Assembly: GCA_944376845.1 (NCBI GenBank)
Contig: CALWDZ010000002.1
Location: 44,233-108,232 of the forward strand
DNA from: an uncultured Clostridia bacterium
Lineage (GTDB): Bacteria; Bacillota; Clostridia; Christensenellales; UBA1242
Length of the DNA: 64,000 nt
Direction: 5' to 3'
Positions 17,367 to 63,005 of this stretch are shown piece after piece. The position numbers were made by a program, and so were the translations under genes. The notes below the pieces were generated by a model. It was not told the origin of the DNA. It ran no database searches and worked only from the letters and a program-made list of their open reading frames with translations. Position 1 is the first letter of the stretch, and each line of letters opens with the position of its first letter.

Positions 17367-18539
17367 TTAATCACCGTTTTCTTCTATGTCATCAATGTCT
17401 TCTAAAGTTGCAAAACTATCTTCATCAACTCCAAGGTCAGTAAGTTCATACTCAACTTCTTTAACATCTGAATCTGATTTAACTGAACTCTCTGGTTTAA
17501 CATCTATCTTCCAGCCAGTAAGTCTAGCGGCAAGTCTGACATTTTGTCCACCTTTTCCTATTGCTAATGAAAGTTTGTCATCTGGAACAATAACTCTTGA
17601 AGATTTTAAACTTTCATTTATTTCAACGCTAATAACTTTTGCTGGACTTAATGCATTTGCAATATATTCAAGCGGATCTTCAGAATATGGAACAAGGTCT
17701 ATTTTCTCACCATTGATTTCATTCATTATAGTATTTATTCTGACTCCACGATTACCTACACAAGCACCAAGTGCATCAATGTGAGGTTTTGTTGCCATTA
17801 TTGCCACTTTACTACGATTACCAGGATCTCTTGCTATATTTTTAATGACTACTTCTCCAGTCTCAATTTCAGGAACTTCGATTTCAAAAAGTTTTCTTAA
17901 GAAACCAATATTGCTTCTTGAAACTTGGATTTGAACGCCTTTGAAACTATCCTTTATTTTTTTAACATATACTTTAACTCTGTCATTAACATGGAAAGTT
18001 TCTCCTGGAATTTGATCTTGTTCAAGCATGACACCTTCAGTGTGTGAACCTGCAATTTGCACATATACAACACCTTGCTCAATTCTCTTAACAACGGTGG
18101 TTAAAAGTTCATCCTCTTTTTCACTCAATTCTCCAAGCGTTATTTGTTTTTCAATTTCTTTCAATTTTTGCATTACAACTTGTTTCGCTGTTTGCGCTGC
18201 AATTCTTCCAAAGTCTTTAGTATTTTCTTCTTGCGTTACTGTATCTCCAATTTTATAACTTGACTTTATTTTTTTTGCATCTTCTAAAGAAATTTCTTTA
18301 TCAGGATTTTCAACTTCCTCAACTACTGTCTTATAACTATAAATTTTTATTGTATTTCTCTCAGGAATGAGTTTAACTTGAGCACTTTTTGCTTCACCAT
18401 ACATCTTTTTGTATGCCGAAGTAAGTGCTGATTCAAGCGCTTCTATAAGTTGATCAGCGTTGATTTTTTTTGTTGTTTCAAGTTCTTCTAATGCTTGAAA
18501 AAAATCTTTGTTTATCATTTTGTTCTCCTTAAAATTCAA
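17367..18539 (-). CDS. nusA: Transcription elongation factor NusA
   Basis: FGRIAAQTAKQV, LSLAIGKGGQNVRLAARLTGWKID. Confidence 0.97.
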   Translation of the reverse strand: MNFKENKMINKDFFQALEELETTKKINADQLIEALESALTSAYKKMYGEAKSAQVKLIPERNTIKIYSYKTVVEEVENPDKEISLEDAKKIKSSYKIGDTVTQEENTKDFGRIAAQTAKQVVMQKLKEIEKQITLGELSEKEDELLTTVVKRIEQGVVYVQIAGSHTEGVMLEQDQIPGETFHVNDRVKVYVKKIKDSFKGVQIQVSRSNIGFLRKLFEIEVPEIETGEVVIKNIARDPGNRSKVAIMATKPHIDALGACVGNRGVRINTIMNEINGEKIDLVPYSEDPLEYIANALSPAKVISVEINESLKSSRVIVPDDKLSLAIGKGGQNVRLAARLTGWKIDVKPESSVKSDSDVKEVEYELTDLGVDEDSFATLEDIDDIEENGD

Positions 18540-18990
18540 TAACTGGACTAATTTGTGCTATTTCGCTGTGTTTTAAAACGACGAGTTTATCATCGACTGC
18601 TACTGTAACATCATTTTCGGTATAGTCCTTTAATAAACCGATGTAGTTCTTAATGCCATCAATTTGCTTGTAAAGAGTTACTTTTACTTTTTTATCCTTA
18701 TTTCGTAGAAAATCTTTATAGTTCTTGATTGGTCTATCAAGTCCAGGTGAACTAATATTTAATAAATATGGTTCTCCTTGAGTTGGGTCAAGTTCATCCA
18801 GTGCGTCGGAGATTGCATCATTAACCTTTTCACAATCATCTACCGTTACACCATTTTCTTTATCAATGTAAAAAGTCAAATTCATTCCGTCAACTTTTTT
18901 TTGATACTCCACCTCAACAACTTCATATCCAAGTTTTTCAATGATTGGACATATTTTTTCATTGCAAAGGCCAACAACTTTACTTGCCAT
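18529..18990 (-). CDS. rimP: Ribosome maturation factor RimP
   Basis: DDCE, YLLNISSPGLDRP. Confidence 0.95.
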   Translation of the reverse strand: MASKVVGLCNEKICPIIEKLGYEVVEVEYQKKVDGMNLTFYIDKENGVTVDDCEKVNDAISDALDELDPTQGEPYLLNISSPGLDRPIKNYKDFLRNKDKKVKVTLYKQIDGIKNYIGLLKDYTENDVTVAVDDKLVVLKHSEIAQISPVIEF

Positions 18991-19012
18991 AAATTACTCC
19001 TTTACTACAAGT

Positions 19013-19083
19013 AAGAGTGGGCAAGATTTTGCCCACTCTTAGTCTAGCATATATAGTCTATCACAACATTTTGTTTTAATCAA
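19013..19083 (-). promoter_or_regulatory. rimP-nusA promoter and leader hairpin
   Basis: TTGATT-17-TAGACT with extended TG (19083-19055), then perfect 12-bp stem AAGAGTGGGCAA/TTGCCCACTCTT (19013-19040), the GAGTGGG...CCCACTC element typical upstream of Firmicute rimP. Confidence 0.7.
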
Positions 19084-19120
19084 TTGTTTTTGTAAAAAAA
19101 TTTATATAAAATAATATTAC

Positions 19121-20698
19121 TTAGATTTCATTAAGTTTCAAAAATACCTCTGCAGTAGCAATGGCATCAGCAATTGCCCTATGTGCATTTTTAAGCGTTA
19201 AACCTAAAGCATCAACAACATTTATAAGTTTATATCTTGATAGGTACATTTTTTTTCTTACAACATCCATTGCATCGATACTTTCATTAGAAAAATATAA
19301 CTTTGCTTTTTTTGCTGTATTTTGAATAAACCCTAAGTCAAAAGAAACATTATATCCAACAAGCACACTACCCTCACAGAATTTATAAAAATCTGTAATC
19401 GCTTGATTTCCGTTTGGTGCATCTTTTACCATATCATTTGTAATAGTCGTCAATCTTGTAATTTCTTCAGGAATTTCATTCTCTGGACATATGAAAGTTT
19501 GAAACTGTTCTTTGATGAGTCCATTTTCAATTTTCACTGCACCAATTTCAATTATTTCATTATATTCAGCACTAAGCCCCGTTGTTTCACAATCGAATAC
19601 AACAAATGTATGTGTTTTTACATAATCTGAGTAGTTTGGTTTTACATCAAACAAATTTTCTTGTCTATCCAGTATGTATGGTGCAGGTTTGACATATTTA
19701 TATTCGTCAATATGTACATTTTTTATTATAGGTTCTTCAATCTCAGGTTCTTGCTTGTCTTCTGCCACAAGTGATGTATCTATTTCACAAAAAGATATGC
19801 TTTTAATATAAAGCCTTTTCTTTTCATAATCTTTTTTTATATCACCTACAACCAAAATACTGTCACCATCTTTCAAAACATTAACTTTTTTATATGATGT
19901 CTTATGTGCAAAATAAATTGCATCAATACTGCCAGTATGGTCAGTGATTGTAAAAGTAAGATAATGACTTGGTTCATCAATTCCCTTTTGCTTGTTTCGT
20001 TTTGAAATATATGTTTTATCTACAAAATTAGAAATTTTACCTGCCAAGATAACCGACATTTTTATATCTGTTTGATTTTTTATTGGCTCAGGCATAGGTG
20101 TTATTTCTTGTCCGCAAAGAAGTTCTGGCATAAATACTGGATACCTTTCAACCTCTTTTTGTTTAGGCAAATTTTCATAAACATTTTTTTCATGTATAGC
20201 AAGCGACTCCTCATCCAAATTTTCATCGCTTTTAATTAAATTTACAACAAAATTGGCTATGAAATTTGTATTTAAATGTTTTAAAATTTTGTCTTTGACC
20301 TTATTATCAATAAAATACTGATAAACAACATCTAAAAGTGTAATGTTTACATCTATAAAATCATTATTTTTTACTATGGAAATATTTTTGTCATCATAAT
20401 ATGCAAACATTGATGGATAAGTAGATTGCAAAAATTCAAAAAGATTTTTCTTAATAAGATTTTCATCAAGATAACTTTTTTTATATTTAATTTTAACTTC
20501 ACATCCAAGAGAAAGTTCTTTCTTTACAAAATCAGATATTTCAAGTTTCTGTGTATCATCAAAATTTTGGCAACTTTCTGGATATAAAAATACTATTTGT
20601 GCAGAAAAAGAATGGGTGCTATAAGTCACACTTTGCACCCTAAGAAAATCATATTTCCCACCAAATTCGGTGTTTATCCTATCAAGAATCTCCATCAA
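19121..20698 (-). CDS. PolC-derived protein: N-terminal domain + OB fold + DEDDh 3'-5' exonuclease, lacking PHP and polymerase domains
   Basis: OB-like FTITDHTGSI...LKDGDSILVVG; exonuclease VVFDCETTG / YNVSFD / HRAIADA; polC position between rseP and rimP. Confidence 0.85.
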   Translation of the reverse strand: MMEILDRINTEFGGKYDFLRVQSVTYSTHSFSAQIVFLYPESCQNFDDTQKLEISDFVKKELSLGCEVKIKYKKSYLDENLIKKNLFEFLQSTYPSMFAYYDDKNISIVKNNDFIDVNITLLDVVYQYFIDNKVKDKILKHLNTNFIANFVVNLIKSDENLDEESLAIHEKNVYENLPKQKEVERYPVFMPELLCGQEITPMPEPIKNQTDIKMSVILAGKISNFVDKTYISKRNKQKGIDEPSHYLTFTITDHTGSIDAIYFAHKTSYKKVNVLKDGDSILVVGDIKKDYEKKRLYIKSISFCEIDTSLVAEDKQEPEIEEPIIKNVHIDEYKYVKPAPYILDRQENLFDVKPNYSDYVKTHTFVVFDCETTGLSAEYNEIIEIGAVKIENGLIKEQFQTFICPENEIPEEITRLTTITNDMVKDAPNGNQAITDFYKFCEGSVLVGYNVSFDLGFIQNTAKKAKLYFSNESIDAMDVVRKKMYLSRYKLINVVDALGLTLKNAHRAIADAIATAEVFLKLNEI

Positions 20699-22005
20699 AG
20701 CCCCACAACTGCTATATGCACAATATCTACGACAACTACAAATAGTAGCAAAATTATCAGCCCATAGAAGTGAATATAGTTTTCCACCTTTCGACTAACT
20801 ACAGGTTTTCTAAAAATCCATTCCAGGAGTGTAAATACCGCGTGACCTCCATCTAATGCTGGAATTGGCAAGAAATTGAAAACCGCCAAGTTAGATGCCA
20901 GTAGTGGCAATAGAATAAGGAAGTTTGCAAAACTTGTTTGCATAATCTCAGACATCATACCTATTGTTGAAATAGAACCGCCTAGTTCTGAGAATGCAAT
21001 TTGTCCTGTTATTATCTGCCAGAAGCCTTTCAAAACAACCCAAGCAAAACCAAATGCTAGTTCAAAACTACGCCGAAGTGCTTCCCAAAAATTGTGTACA
21101 TATGCTTCAGTTGAAAACCCAGCAACAAGTCTTCGTTCTTCTTCGCCTTGTTCATTGGTTACAGTTTCCTCTGCAAGCCTAATTACAACTTGTATTCTTT
21201 GGTTATCTCTTTCTACATCAAGAGTAATATCAGTATCTGTACCCGCCTCACTCAAAAGTTGTGAAAGTGTTCCAGAAAATGCAAAACTAATGCGTGTTCC
21301 ATTTACTCCCCAGATAATATCGCCCTCTTGCAACTCTCCATACAAATTTGAATAATTGGTATCAAGTGTTGCAACACGTGGAATGTCATAACCATAAGAT
21401 ATTAAAAGAATAAAAGAAAATATTATAGCACTAAGGAAGTTAAAAGTTACGCCCGCCATATAAACAAGTAATCTTTTCCAAGGTTTTTGATTTATAAAAT
21501 CACCGCTATGGTCAACTTTTTTAGCATCTGTTTTTTCTTTGCCTTCAGTTATATCATTTATTTGTTTAATTATTTCAGTGGTTTGTTCATTTTTTGTAAC
21601 TTTTTTTTCTTCTTTTGTCGTTTCTACTATTTCTGATTTCTTCTCGTTATCATTATTGTCATTTTTTACAACAGTATCTTGTTTGCTGTCAATATTTTTA
21701 TCAGTCGATTTATCTTTTTCAGCATCATTTTTTTCAATATTCTTGTCTTTATCATCTAGCTCATCGTCATCACCTTCGCCAGCAAAAGCGCAATAACCAC
21801 CTAGTGGAAATATACGCAAGGAAATTTTTTCTCCACGCTTATTTACTTTGCTAAAAATTGCTTTACCAAAGCCTATAGAAAATTCTGTTATTTTAAAACC
21901 TAGCCATCTACCAACACAGTAGTGACCAAACTCATGAATTAAAACCATTAAAAGCAAAACACATATTGCAAGAATTACATAACCTATTGTGGTTAAAATA
22001 CCCAT
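20695..22005 (-). CDS. rseP: Site-2 protease RseP/RasP (M50) with PDZ
   Basis: HEFGH, PLGGYC, NFLPIPALDGG. Confidence 0.92.
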   Translation of the reverse strand: MGILTTIGYVILAICVLLLMVLIHEFGHYCVGRWLGFKITEFSIGFGKAIFSKVNKRGEKISLRIFPLGGYCAFAGEGDDDELDDKDKNIEKNDAEKDKSTDKNIDSKQDTVVKNDNNDNEKKSEIVETTKEEKKVTKNEQTTEIIKQINDITEGKEKTDAKKVDHSGDFINQKPWKRLLVYMAGVTFNFLSAIIFSFILLISYGYDIPRVATLDTNYSNLYGELQEGDIIWGVNGTRISFAFSGTLSQLLSEAGTDTDITLDVERDNQRIQVVIRLAEETVTNEQGEEERRLVAGFSTEAYVHNFWEALRRSFELAFGFAWVVLKGFWQIITGQIAFSELGGSISTIGMMSEIMQTSFANFLILLPLLASNLAVFNFLPIPALDGGHAVFTLLEWIFRKPVVSRKVENYIHFYGLIILLLFVVVVDIVHIAVVGL

Positions 22006-22015
22006 TTTATCTCCT

Positions 22016-22966
22016 TTATAAAAGTATTACCAAAAATATAAATATAAGCGGAGCACAAACAATATGACTGTCCATTCTATCCAAAATTCCGCCGTGACCA
22101 GGCAAAATGTCACCAGAATCTTTTACATTTGCTTTACGTTTTATATAACTTTCAAGCAAATCTCCAAGTTCACATACAACCGATGCAATAAAGCCAATTA
22201 TGATGAAATGCCAAAATGCAAACCCTACTTGAGTAAATACTTCAGCATACATATCAAAAGCATTGAAGATTAGGTACAATAGAACTGCTGAAATAGTACC
22301 CCAAAATACTCCGCCAACTGCACCCGAAATTGTTTTATTTGGACTGATTTTTGGACAAAGTTTTCTGCCTTTAAACAATGAACCTGTAAGATAGGCAAAA
22401 GTATCTGTAAAGATTGGAATTATAAATGTTAATATAAGTCCAAAGGTACTTATTAAAAATAATGCATTTGATGTATATGTTGTAAAGTAGTCAGACATTA
22501 CAGCAATATCATTTATAAACACAAAGAAAAGCATTAAAATTGCAGGATATAAGTAAATGTACATAGTCTGAATTGCTTTATAAATAGAAAAAGATTCAAC
22601 TCTAAGTTTTAGGTTTCTAGTCGCAATTTCATTTTTTGTAGACTTATACATTATAAGACTCAAGAACCACTGAGCCATAACAAAAACTATAATAAGTGCT
22701 AGTTCCATTAAAATTAGCATATACCAACGCATATCAAGATTTAAGCATAAAACAAACAAACCATATGCGAATAATGGATATGCTATTGCAAAATATTTAT
22801 TATTATAAACACCCATTTTGGCAAATAGACGGCTTGTCTCATAACATGCATACATAGCAATTATCACCATAAAAGCATCAAAAATATATGTTGATAATTG
22901 TCGTGCAAGCAATACAAGCACAAGTATAGCAACAAGCGTTGCTCCTGTTATAATTCTTTGTTTCAT
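22016..22966 (-). CDS. cdsA: Phosphatidate cytidylyltransferase
   Basis: ISPNKT, GDLLESYIKRKANVKDSG..LPGHGGILDRMDS. Confidence 0.96.
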   Translation of the reverse strand: MKQRIITGATLVAILVLVLLARQLSTYIFDAFMVIIAMYACYETSRLFAKMGVYNNKYFAIAYPLFAYGLFVLCLNLDMRWYMLILMELALIIVFVMAQWFLSLIMYKSTKNEIATRNLKLRVESFSIYKAIQTMYIYLYPAILMLFFVFINDIAVMSDYFTTYTSNALFLISTFGLILTFIIPIFTDTFAYLTGSLFKGRKLCPKISPNKTISGAVGGVFWGTISAVLLYLIFNAFDMYAEVFTQVGFAFWHFIIIGFIASVVCELGDLLESYIKRKANVKDSGDILPGHGGILDRMDSHIVCAPLIFIFLVILL

Positions 22967-61723: not shown

Positions 61724-61760
61724 ATTAAAATTAATATAATTATACCAAAAGGAGGATAAA

Positions 61761-63005
61761 ATGCAAACAAAAAAGATAATTCTTCATTGCGATGTCAACA
61801 ATTTTTTTGCATCGTGTGAATGTGCACTTAATCCTTCTATTAAAGACCAACCTGTCGCCGTCACTGGAGAAGTTACCAAACGAAATGGCATAGTACTTGC
61901 AAAAAATGAGATTGCAAAACGGTTTGGTGTTAAAACTGGTGATGTTATATTTGAAGCAAAAAGAAAATGCCCTGATCTTGTGTGCGTTAGACCTCACCAC
62001 AAAATTTATGAAAGATATTCTAGACAAATAAGGGCTATTTACGAGGAATATACAGACAAAGTTGAGCCATTTGGAATAGACGAGTGTTGGCTAGATATAA
62101 CCGACACAGTCAAATTTTTCGGAAGCGCCTTAGATGTGGCAAATACACTTAGAGAGCGTATTAAAAAGGAAATTGGAGTAACTATTTCGGTTGGAATAAG
62201 TTTTTCAAAGACATTTGCAAAACTTGGTAGTGATATGAAAAAGCCCGATGCGGTGACCGTGCTTTCAAAAGAGAATTTTAAACAAAAGACCTATCATTTA
62301 CCACTTGGAAGCATTATAGGTATAGGAAAAAAATTAGAAACAAAACTAAATAAATTAAACATATTTACACTTGGCGACCTTGCAGAATATGACGAGAATA
62401 TCATAAAAAAGAAATTTGGAATTGTTGGAGAAAGACTTCAAAAAAATGTACAAGGTATTGACGATGATGATGTACAAAACGTTGACGATAGAAAAATTGT
62501 AAAAAGTGTTGGCAACGGAACTACAACACTTGTAGATGTAAAAAACAAAAAAGAACTTAGAAGTGTAGTTATGTTTTTGTGTGACGAGATTGCAACAAGG
62601 CTGAGAGCAAAACATTTGACTGGGTCAACAATATCGGTATCACTTAGACGCAACGACCTTATTTGGCTTTCTAAAAGCCATACAATTTTAAAAAATACAA
62701 ACTCCGCAAAAGATATTTACCATACAGCAATGGATATTATAGACCAAATTTGGAATGAAGTTTGTCCACTTAGAAGTATAAGAATAAGCGTTTCAAATTT
62801 GGACAACGATGATATGTCGCAACTTGACTTATTTAATACTGATAGAAATAGAAAAAATCTTGAAAATGCTATAGATAAAATTAGGCAAAAATATGGTTAT
62901 GACAGTATAAGACCATTGCTTAGCAAAGACGATAGACTTATAAATTCTCAAGCACTCAGAATTGAAGATGATGAAAATGAAAACCCTGATGACGACTTAT
63001 CTTAA
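61761..63005 (+). CDS. dinB: DNA polymerase IV (Y family)
   Basis: HCDVNNFFASCE, GIDEC, AKLGSDMKKP, clamp motif QLDLF. Confidence 0.95.
   Translation: MQTKKIILHCDVNNFFASCECALNPSIKDQPVAVTGEVTKRNGIVLAKNEIAKRFGVKTGDVIFEAKRKCPDLVCVRPHHKIYERYSRQIRAIYEEYTDKVEPFGIDECWLDITDTVKFFGSALDVANTLRERIKKEIGVTISVGISFSKTFAKLGSDMKKPDAVTVLSKENFKQKTYHLPLGSIIGIGKKLETKLNKLNIFTLGDLAEYDENIIKKKFGIVGERLQKNVQGIDDDDVQNVDDRKIVKSVGNGTTTLVDVKNKKELRSVVMFLCDEIATRLRAKHLTGSTISVSLRRNDLIWLSKSHTILKNTNSAKDIYHTAMDIIDQIWNEVCPLRSIRISVSNLDNDDMSQLDLFNTDRNRKNLENAIDKIRQKYGYDSIRPLLSKDDRLINSQALRIEDDENENPDDDLS

Follow-up and report, generated by a model that had tools for sequence, protein, structure and literature searches.

What is left when the polymerase has gone from a replicative polymerase gene, and what might the remainder do? 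The question is raised by the polC locus in a stretch of 64,000 nucleotides from an uncultured Clostridia bacterium (contig CALWDZ010000002.1, hereafter the window), where we find a gene for a protein of 524 amino acids (aa) that we call mini-PolC. Mini-PolC is an orthologous, in-place remnant of polC, in which the N-terminal domain (NTD), the OB fold, a linker and the DEDDh exonuclease form a separate protein. The polymerase core, the C-terminal half of the PHP domain and most of its N-terminal half were lost in a single ancestor, from which a large clade inside one clostridial order descends. We regard it as nearly certain that this lineage, which has no PolC polymerase, conserves the PolC remnant as a functional protein, and, with moderate confidence, we favour a role for it as a clamp-tethered second proofreader beside DnaE.

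By sequence, the NTD, the OB fold and the exonuclease of mini-PolC are all of PolC type. Pfam places an OB fold at residues 244-301 (E value 1e-7) and RNase_T at residues 366-519 (E value 1.2e-37); no other Pfam match lies above threshold, and library domain searches matched neither PHP nor polymerase within the gene. The NCBIfam PolC model covers the protein only at model positions 418-584, over the exonuclease, plus a weak stretch at 41-336. When profiles of 134 mini-PolC family members and of 12 full-length PolCs of the same order were compared with hhalign, the two families aligned with a probability of 100% (E value 8.9e-77, 491 columns). The alignment is collinear, mini-PolC 18-525 lying on PolC 22-582, and within this single alignment the NTD and OB fold (columns 18-305) lie on PolC 22-325. 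The AlphaFold2 (AF2) model of the whole protein has a predicted local distance difference test score (pLDDT) of 93.9 and a predicted template modelling score (pTM) of 0.54, and chain residues 218..589 of Enterococcus faecium PolC (9qpc_A) superpose on model residues 191..524 with a VIA Z score of 23.1. The NTD is predicted to consist of two alpha/beta subdomains of KH-like fold (1-75 and 76-158) and a helix after them; modelled by itself, it has a pLDDT of 85.6.

The genome that contains the window (1,024,132 bases in 19 contigs, 99.4% complete, 0.25% contamination) has one match to PF07733, the Pol III alpha core, and this is DnaE on contig C5. A full-length polC or a complementary PHP-Pol half was not found in this 99.4%-complete genome, the PolC model had no match above cut-off over the genome, and, of the three PHP matches, one is DnaE itself and the others fall in frames of 259 and 448 aa that do not encode a polymerase. 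The single PF07733 match rules out a polymerase half split off to another site.

The gene itself is well supported. Logan contigs from four runs of three other studies were aligned to 18900-20900; one of these independent contigs, of 5420 bases, spans 18900-19459, including the stop codon and the rimP junction, with 8 substitutions and no gaps. The sole indel among the independent contigs is a 6-base deletion at 19112-19117 (run X6), a strain difference in the intergenic spacer between the stop codon and rimP. Compared with its nearest relative (98% protein identity, 414 aligned codons), mini-PolC has a ratio of nonsynonymous to synonymous substitution rates (dN/dS) of 0.056 at dS 0.18. By region, dN/dS is 0.084 for the NTD, 0.036 for the linker and lowest, 0.018, for the OB fold; the exonuclease offers 55 comparable codons only, and more distant pairs have saturated dS. 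An explanation of mini-PolC by assembly error, by a frameshift in polC or by pseudogene decay has next to no chance of being right, since the contigs from other studies cover the stop codon with nothing beyond substitutions and one 6-nucleotide intergenic deletion, the same architecture recurs in at least 85 genomes, and dN/dS is 0.056; we consider it ruled out. The preliminary description of this locus, which was made from the sequence alone, was therefore correct in its observations: a gene at the polC locus with an NTD, an OB fold, a linker and a DEDDh exonuclease (Pfam, hhalign and synteny agree), without a polymerase (no Pol3 match in Pfam), and not frameshifted. The outcomes that it named as refuting did not appear: there is no full-length polC or separate PHP-Pol gene elsewhere, the architecture is conserved and under purifying selection, the gene end recurs in independent contigs, and the predicted complex with DnaN gave weak support.

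The short form is widespread in the order. Among 41 relatives searched by protein, frames of 511-567 aa occur in most of the genus (51-83% identity); identity falls to 33-39% where such frames occur in the family's other genera, and to 31-32% in five additional families of the order. A further eleven families in this set have an exonuclease match only, ten of them within frames of 1416-1474 aa and the eleventh (G035, 51% complete) within a 312-aa frame. The number of polymerase alpha subunits follows the form of the gene: one alpha in all 30 genomes of short-form families, and DnaE plus PolC in the 10 with full-length PolC, a 51%-complete genome giving a messy result. Of 201 sampled genomes of the order, each at least 90% complete, 85 carry frames of 363-596 aa that match the mini-PolC profile at E values of 9.2e-72 or below, and three more with weaker scores hold a divergent short form. 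About 105 have exonuclease-only matches, mostly in frames of 1239-1560 aa, and in 6 the profile was unmatched at 1e-10. In a class-wide sample of 400 genomes, whole-profile matches in short frames were found only in the order itself (16 genomes) at a threshold of E 1e-68, below which more divergent mini-PolCs would escape; the 13 matches from other orders were confined to the exonuclease, and all but one, in a 684-aa frame, lie within frames of 1280-1520 aa.

Among 1.84 billion cluster representatives, the best 150 matches to the profile are all 313-589 aa long (E value ≤1e-111). The related proteins bear generic database names ('exonuclease domain-containing protein', '3'-5' exoribonuclease', 'ribonuclease H-like') and all come from Clostridia metagenome-assembled genomes (MAGs). 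Related loci belong to uncultured Clostridia, to Christensenellaceae/Christensenella MAGs, and to Candidatus Scatosoma and Candidatus Neoclostridium roslinense, both of which NCBI files under Clostridia incertae sedis; no cultured strain is among the whole-length matches in 80 related loci.

Phylogeny indicates that the transition took place once. In a DnaE tree (22 genomes, 1192 columns), one branch sets the 12 genomes that lack a PolC polymerase apart from the 10 that have it (ultrafast bootstrap 100, Shimodaira-Hasegawa-like approximate likelihood ratio test (SH-aLRT) 100), and a single change suffices in all 200 bootstrap trees. This tree is unrooted, and therefore indicates one transition and not its direction. 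The direction, from full-length to short, is given by the placement of the short forms in a tree of the shared PolC part (38 rows, 507 columns, quick search, leaving out one protein that consists of NTD and OB fold only and one near-duplicate): the 19 short forms make up one clade (SH-aLRT 100) with a stem of 0.98 changes per column, placed beside full-length PolCs of their own and other orders.

The gene that replaces polC has kept its place: mini-PolC occupies the polC locus, rseP-X-rimP-nusA, and rimP-nusA is directly downstream in 7 mini-PolC loci and, in the same order, in 6 of 12 full-length polC loci. The wider gene order is frr - uppS - cdsA - rseP - mini-PolC - rimP - nusA - ylxR - ylxQ - infB, with neighbours named from their translations and from synteny; coordinates are collected in Table 1. 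The ATG of mini-PolC shares one base with the rseP stop codon (TGATG). A TTG at 20698 is an alternative start, which would give a 525-aa protein (19121..20698, minus strand); because most relatives start at the position of the ATG, residues are numbered on the 524-aa form. A promoter and terminator scan of 18400-22200 was uninformative, with 20 promoter-like sites against 18.1 expected, which is chance level, and no terminators. In the window from 1 to 50000, GC skew is -0.12 to -0.25 and the listed genes are on the minus strand. A genome without a PolC polymerase has thus retained pronounced strand asymmetry and co-oriented genes; a link between PolC and purine asymmetry has been proposed.

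Table 1. Coordinates of mini-PolC, its parts and its neighbours, as positions in the window
Feature	Position	Strand	Remarks
Mini-PolC open reading frame	19121..20695	-	524 aa from ATG 20695; stop codon 19121-19123
N-terminal domain, PolC-type, residues 1-175	20171..20695	-	hhalign to PolC NTD; AF2 pLDDT 92-97
OB fold, residues 187-305	19781..20137	-	Pfam PF01336, E 1e-7
Linker, residues 306-356	19628..19780	-	Replaces N-terminal part of PHP domain
Conserved island Y332-x-x-[VI]-x-P337-x-P-Y340	19676..19702	-	Y332 in 123/134, P337 in 127/133, Y340 in 97/134
QENLF, candidate beta-clamp-binding motif	19649..19663	-	Family consensus Q-x-[NDS]-[LIF]-[FL]
DEDDh (DnaQ-like) 3'-5' exonuclease domain, residues 357-524	19124..19627	-	Pfam RNase_T, E 1.2e-37
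Catalytic D368	19592-19594	-	
Catalytic E370	19586-19588	-	
Catalytic D453	19337-19339	-	
Catalytic H505	19181-19183	-	
Catalytic D510	19166-19168	-	
rseP-like site-2 protease gene (putative)	20695..22005	-	Directly upstream of mini-PolC; named from synteny and sequence features
rimP	18529..18990	-	Directly downstream of mini-PolC; starts ~130 bp past it
nusA	17367-18539		After rimP; same neighbours follow full-length polC in relatives

The exonuclease domain has the residues expected of an active enzyme. Sequence places mini-PolC in the DEDDh/DnaQ superfamily, with a score of 130.4 bits to PF00929 (cut-off 24), and D368, E370, D453, H505 and D510 are invariant in all 134 aligned mini-PolCs. 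The closest solved structure by sequence is the Thermotoga maritima PolC exonuclease (2p1j, E value 6.9e-29), and the exonuclease model has VIA Z scores of 22-25 to the DinG exonuclease, epsilon and the PolC exonuclease. Mini-PolC is also the sole RNase_T match in its genome, in which there is accordingly no second dnaQ. These properties bear on a further reading of the gene, in which the protein is a repair or recombination enzyme, or an RNA-processing exonuclease, that works away from the fork and is merely descended from PolC. The generic exonuclease, exoribonuclease and ribonuclease H-like names of its relatives would fit such an enzyme, as would the range of its nearest structural folds, which include the DinG exonuclease, ExoX and RNase T (Z 19-25), and the only DEDDh enzyme of a genome may have taken on general duties. 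We nevertheless consider this role quite improbable, since the closest relatives by sequence and by profile are PolC exonuclease domains, and since the protein has kept the PolC-specific NTD and OB fold and the polC locus, and has gained a clamp-type motif.

This motif lies in the linker. Full-length PolCs carry RVELHLHT...AITDHGVVQAFP...GVEGYL, the first part of PHP, ahead of the exonuclease, where mini-PolC has a linker of ~50 residues that is variable, in the 134-sequence alignment, outside two islands. Because hhalign aligns the first of these, Y..V.P.PY, to VVQAFPDAY of the N-terminal PHP part (PHP-N) and the second, Q.NLF, to GMEGYL, the linker may in part be a degenerate PHP remnant. 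Thus, of the earlier view that both PHP halves are absent, the lack of any PHP match stands, and the clean absence of PHP-N does not.

The second island contains QENLF, found exactly where the preliminary description had put it. Qxx[LIM]F occurs 9 times in frames of at least 100 aa in the window, such that a single occurrence is not significant, and the weight of QENLF therefore rests on its conservation. Among the 134 aligned sequences, Q345 is present in 130, N, D or S in 119, L, I or F in 117 and F or L in 128, with F349 itself in 109. Q..[LIMVF][FLM] occurs within the 37 residues before the exonuclease in 238 of the 249 family proteins with a recognisable ExoI motif, compared to 17.9 on average, and never more than 30, when these windows were shuffled 200 times. 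The motif is new at this position: none of 11 full-length PolCs of the order has it there, while 8 of 12 have QxxLF at the C-terminus (in the last 5-15 residues), which is presumably their clamp motif. The exonuclease fold begins at residue 357-363 in structure alignments, leaving QENLF just outside it, and the motif keeps an almost constant distance from ExoI (23 residues in 142 of 215). QENLF and the family consensus match the class of beta-clamp pentapeptides with the consensus QL[SD]LF, reportedly described by Dalrymple in 2001. Elsewhere in the window, a QLDLF occurs at 62820-62834, 56 residues from the end of a 421-aa frame (61740-63002, plus strand) that is putatively DinB.

The polymerase that such a protein would serve is DnaE. 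On the basis of the gene inventory, replication of the chromosome must rest on a single DnaE1-like DnaE with an internal QxSLF motif; a clamp-type motif of the form Q[FMVIL]S[LI]F is internal to 21 of the 22 DnaEs compared. The protein has 1201 aa, arranged as PHP - Pol3 - fingers - HhH - OB, followed by ~80 further residues. We sought clade-specific changes in DnaE as marks of a partner surface and found one insertion and three fixed differences, from which we draw no conclusion: an 11-residue insertion at 488-498 (YYFGKTGKKEN in this genome, L108:1-3606) and three fixed substitutions are common to the clade without a PolC polymerase, and the insertion is not present in the DnaEs of genomes with full-length PolC.

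From the catalytic residues, the retained NTD and OB fold, the new motif and the DnaE-only genomes, we infer that mini-PolC may be a clamp-tethered 3'-5' exonuclease at the replication fork. The protein arose when the polymerase core was deleted from polC and the NTD, OB fold, linker and exonuclease were kept. The remnant gained Qxx[LIF][FL] some 10 residues ahead of the exonuclease fold, replacing the C-terminal clamp motif lost with the polymerase. In the proposed mechanism, this motif would dock on the second pocket of the DnaN dimer, the first being occupied by DnaE, and the OB fold and the KH-like NTD would keep the protein at the fork, on single-stranded DNA (ssDNA) and possibly on the clamp loader. 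There, the DEDDh site would trim mismatched 3' ends let go by DnaE, as a second proofreader next to the PHP nuclease.

Several observations weigh against this role as a clamp-tethered proofreader, and they concern the partner, the motif and the exonuclease itself. With respect to the partner, the PHP metal-site signature of DnaE, HHDHEHCDH, is intact in the genome itself and in 21 of the 22 DnaEs, in both groups of the DnaE tree (the 22nd sequence is cut at its start), and a complete PHP of this type counts as 'active' by the criterion set out in a 2026 survey (PMC12926913). Mini-PolC is thus unlikely to be the sole proofreader, and a DEDDh proofreader beside a DnaE whose PHP appears intact would not be strictly needed. 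The clamp loader is also unusual. The genome's own DnaX (L072:1474-2568, contig C5) has 364 aa, comprising the ATPase, the lid and domain III, with the tau C-terminal part missing. DnaX frames are 364-391 aa in the genus and in G022, and 524-706 aa where PolC is full-length; the remaining genomes that lack a PolC polymerase have frames of 388-592 aa, setting aside G021 and G024, in which 314-aa frames match the model partially. If this holds, the tau connection that normally joins polymerase and clamp loader would be missing here, and the partner proposed for the NTD may differ, because this DnaX is without the tau C-terminal part.

With respect to the motif, its pLDDT in the AF2 model is 90-98 (residues 331-350), which is high for a free linear motif, and it could, in this model, pack on the exonuclease domain; the linker as a whole has pLDDT 53 at 311-320 and 85-98 at 321-360. 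We also predicted a complex of the DnaN dimer (22-row alignment) with mini-PolC residues 306-524 (134-row alignment), as had been proposed in the preliminary description. The ipSAE interface score was 0.42, above the best of 3 controls (0.15) and still weak, and the interface was not returned; the runs agree in at least 91% of contacts, with partner pLDDT of at least 78. Of 80 solved complexes, 58 reach the mark for this score, as do 2 of 110 mismatched pairs, and passes at 0.60 or below comprise only 7 of the 80 solved complexes together with both passing mismatches. The pass may, moreover, reflect likeness to known structures, because clamp-peptide complexes have already been solved.

These results would be expected if the Qxx[LIF][FL] island were structural, a degenerate PHP strand packed on the exonuclease, and not a clamp motif. 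Its alignment to the PHP-N strand GMEGYL and its near-fixed distance to ExoI point the same way as the high pLDDT and the weak complex. By contrast, Q-x-[NDS]-[LIF]-[FL] agrees with the clamp pentapeptide and stands between variable flanks, full-length proteins have no Q at this place, the motif is outside the exonuclease fold, and the complex scored above all three controls. We judge a purely structural island to be unlikely; it would touch one step of the mechanism, and is compatible either with the off-fork enzyme considered above or with the scaffold considered next.

With respect to the exonuclease, relatives exist in which it is dead or gone. In G024 (genus g6, L032:6074-7024), the gene ends right after the OB fold (...ISFCELAD), giving a protein of 316-338 aa with NTD and OB fold only, and no RNase_T/DEDDh match was found in this genome (91% complete); in its sister genus G021, a frame of 217 aa matches the OB part. 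In family f39 (genera g46 and g75; L195, L196 and L197), mini-PolCs of 546-552 aa have the residues of ExoI and ExoIII replaced in all three genomes examined, each of which has a single DnaE. ExoI reads VLHVNSTG, VLHYNGTG or VLYLTTTG in place of V-F-D-x-E-T-T-G, and HRAxxD is absent. The f39 nuclease is thus probably dead, and the replaced motifs imply that mini-PolC survives without nuclease activity there. Because some sublineages retain mini-PolC although its exonuclease has died or disappeared, the core function may lie outside proofreading. The order also includes, in other families (G126 and G163), PolCs of 1404-1434 aa without a detectable exonuclease; exonuclease-less PolCs were seen in family f21 and in G027, whose PolC (L043:900-5126) is without the ExoI motif. 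The order thus holds a series: full PolC, exonuclease-less PolC, polymerase-less remnant, dead-exonuclease remnant, and NTD-OB alone.

The main rival reading puts the scaffold first and the nuclease second: NTD, OB fold and linker motifs would form a non-catalytic scaffold or ssDNA factor that bridges to the clamp, the clamp loader, the helicase or the template, with an exonuclease that is optional and, in this genus, active. NTD-OB is the part kept in every form seen and may be the core of mini-PolC, and the OB fold has the lowest dN/dS. The NTD fold would also suit such a factor, being KH-like as in DnaA domain I and DciA (a middling Z of 7.3 for both). In the NTD fold search, the best Z was 9.7 and the others were below 8.2 (VIA Z 6-9.7 to KH-like folds), middling values from which we read no function. 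The NTD-only model has Z 6-7.3 to KH-like domains of replication proteins, namely DciA with DnaB, the SirA-DnaA domain I entry and the E. coli tau C-terminal domain, and we note these as a lead only. A contact between the PolC NTD and the clamp loader has been proposed in a 2014 survey (PMC3919608), and the E. faecium PolC NTD is described as flexible and unresolved in cryo-EM structures (PMC12592400). Against a scaffold, the DEDDh residues are invariant in the 134 aligned proteins and in this genome, and, of the four regions, it is the exonuclease that has changed least at the protein level (dN 0.039-0.102) in comparisons with G015, G009, G007 and G004, in which dS is saturated; in addition, the fold matches are weak and no candidate partner of NTD-OB emerged. 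We consider the scaffold reading rather unlikely, and retain the clamp-tethered second proofreader as the reading that we favour.

A more far-reaching account is also conceivable. In this account, deletion of the polymerase freed a cis-acting proofreader together with the PolC anchors, which were rewired to the clamp as a trans-acting replisome subunit serving DnaE1; later, in some lineages, the nuclease died and NTD-OB was kept. We put this forward tentatively, as possible and still doubtful. If it is true, mini-PolC would be a new class of replisome subunit, its clade would be a natural deletion series of PolC, and the N-terminal region of PolC would do essential work at the fork, independently of the polymerase, that has been overlooked in model Firmicutes. 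That NTD-OB-Exo was long kept under purifying selection does point to polymerase-independent functions of this region. The PolC reduction series also provides testable material on the sharing of proofreading between PHP and DEDDh nucleases and on the gain of clamp-binding motifs. In practical terms, annotation pipelines label mini-PolCs as generic exonucleases, and antibiotics that target PolC would be expected to find no polymerase target in these organisms.

Comparison with known systems helps to define what mini-PolC is. It shares with PolC (NF001688 / TIGR01405) an orthologous locus and a homologous, collinear NTD, OB fold and DEDDh exonuclease. PolC differs in having a Pol3 core, HhH and a functional PHP, all three of which are lacking in mini-PolC, which cannot polymerise; its presumed clamp motif is C-terminal, whereas the candidate motif of mini-PolC is in the linker between OB fold and exonuclease. 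Three defining features of PolC separate the two, and mini-PolC is therefore not a PolC: its whole-protein scores fall far below the cut-offs (183.5 bits versus 873, and 154.1 versus 1043), the PF07733 core and the finger domain are missing in Pfam, and so is the exonuclease-split PHP.

E. coli epsilon (DnaQ) is likewise a stand-alone DEDDh nuclease with a clamp-type motif beside the nuclease fold, and mini-PolC resembles it in scoring 116.9 to TIGR00573 (cut-off 71.5) and in VIA Z scores of 22-23 to epsilon structures. The proteobacterial epsilon equivalog, TIGR01406, is not reached (78.3 versus a cut-off of 222.7). The epsilon motif is C-terminal to the fold and that of mini-PolC N-terminal to it; epsilon has a C-terminal alpha-binding tail, whereas mini-PolC ends, at residue 524, with the last exonuclease helix; and mini-PolC, unlike epsilon, has an NTD and an OB fold, and a partner DnaE with an intact PHP site. 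E. coli-type DnaQ has been reported as mutually exclusive with an active PHP (PMC11348249).

The closest functional analogy is the non-canonical DnaQ of mycobacteria, which is also a DEDDh nuclease with a Qxx[L]F-type motif that coexists with a PHP-proficient DnaE1. It is reported to bind the clamp through a C-terminal Q[Y/L]ALF and to act together with the PHP proofreader, and its clamp motif is described as dispensable for the antimutator effect (PMC11348249). It differs from mini-PolC in the position of the motif and in having BRCT beside the exonuclease, for which mini-PolC gave no Pfam match up to E 1, while mini-PolC is derived from PolC and has an NTD and an OB fold. The preliminary description had proposed an epsilon-like subunit that proofreads in trans for DnaE; with the PHP of DnaE intact, mini-PolC would be a second proofreader, more like mycobacterial DnaQ than like epsilon.

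Finally, DnaE1-only Clostridia, as well as exonuclease-less PolCs, were reported in 2014 by Timinskas et al. (PMC3919608), and the genome described here, likewise clostridial, resembles the DnaE1-only ones in having one alpha subunit of DnaE1 type. The second proposal of the preliminary description, a replisome unlike the PolC plus DnaE model, thus holds for the presence of a single DnaE, and is not new in this respect; overall, its interpretation is partly supported. The division of work between PolC and DnaE1 in Clostridia is stated in the same survey to be experimentally uncharacterised (PMC3919608), and a large, uncultured gut clade of small genomes that replicates after deletion of the PolC polymerase is an argument that, in Clostridia, DnaE1 can serve as the only replicase. 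The parts of the 2014 and 2026 surveys that bear on this (PMC3919608, PMC12926913) make no mention of an NTD-OB-Exo remnant, supplementary tables aside, and we found no published description of a polymerase-less PolC that keeps the exonuclease and the N-terminal modules, although the supplements of these surveys might list such proteins. What is new here, in a DnaE1-only replisome of a kind already known, is the retained PolC remnant, a PolC-derived type of stand-alone replisome exonuclease.

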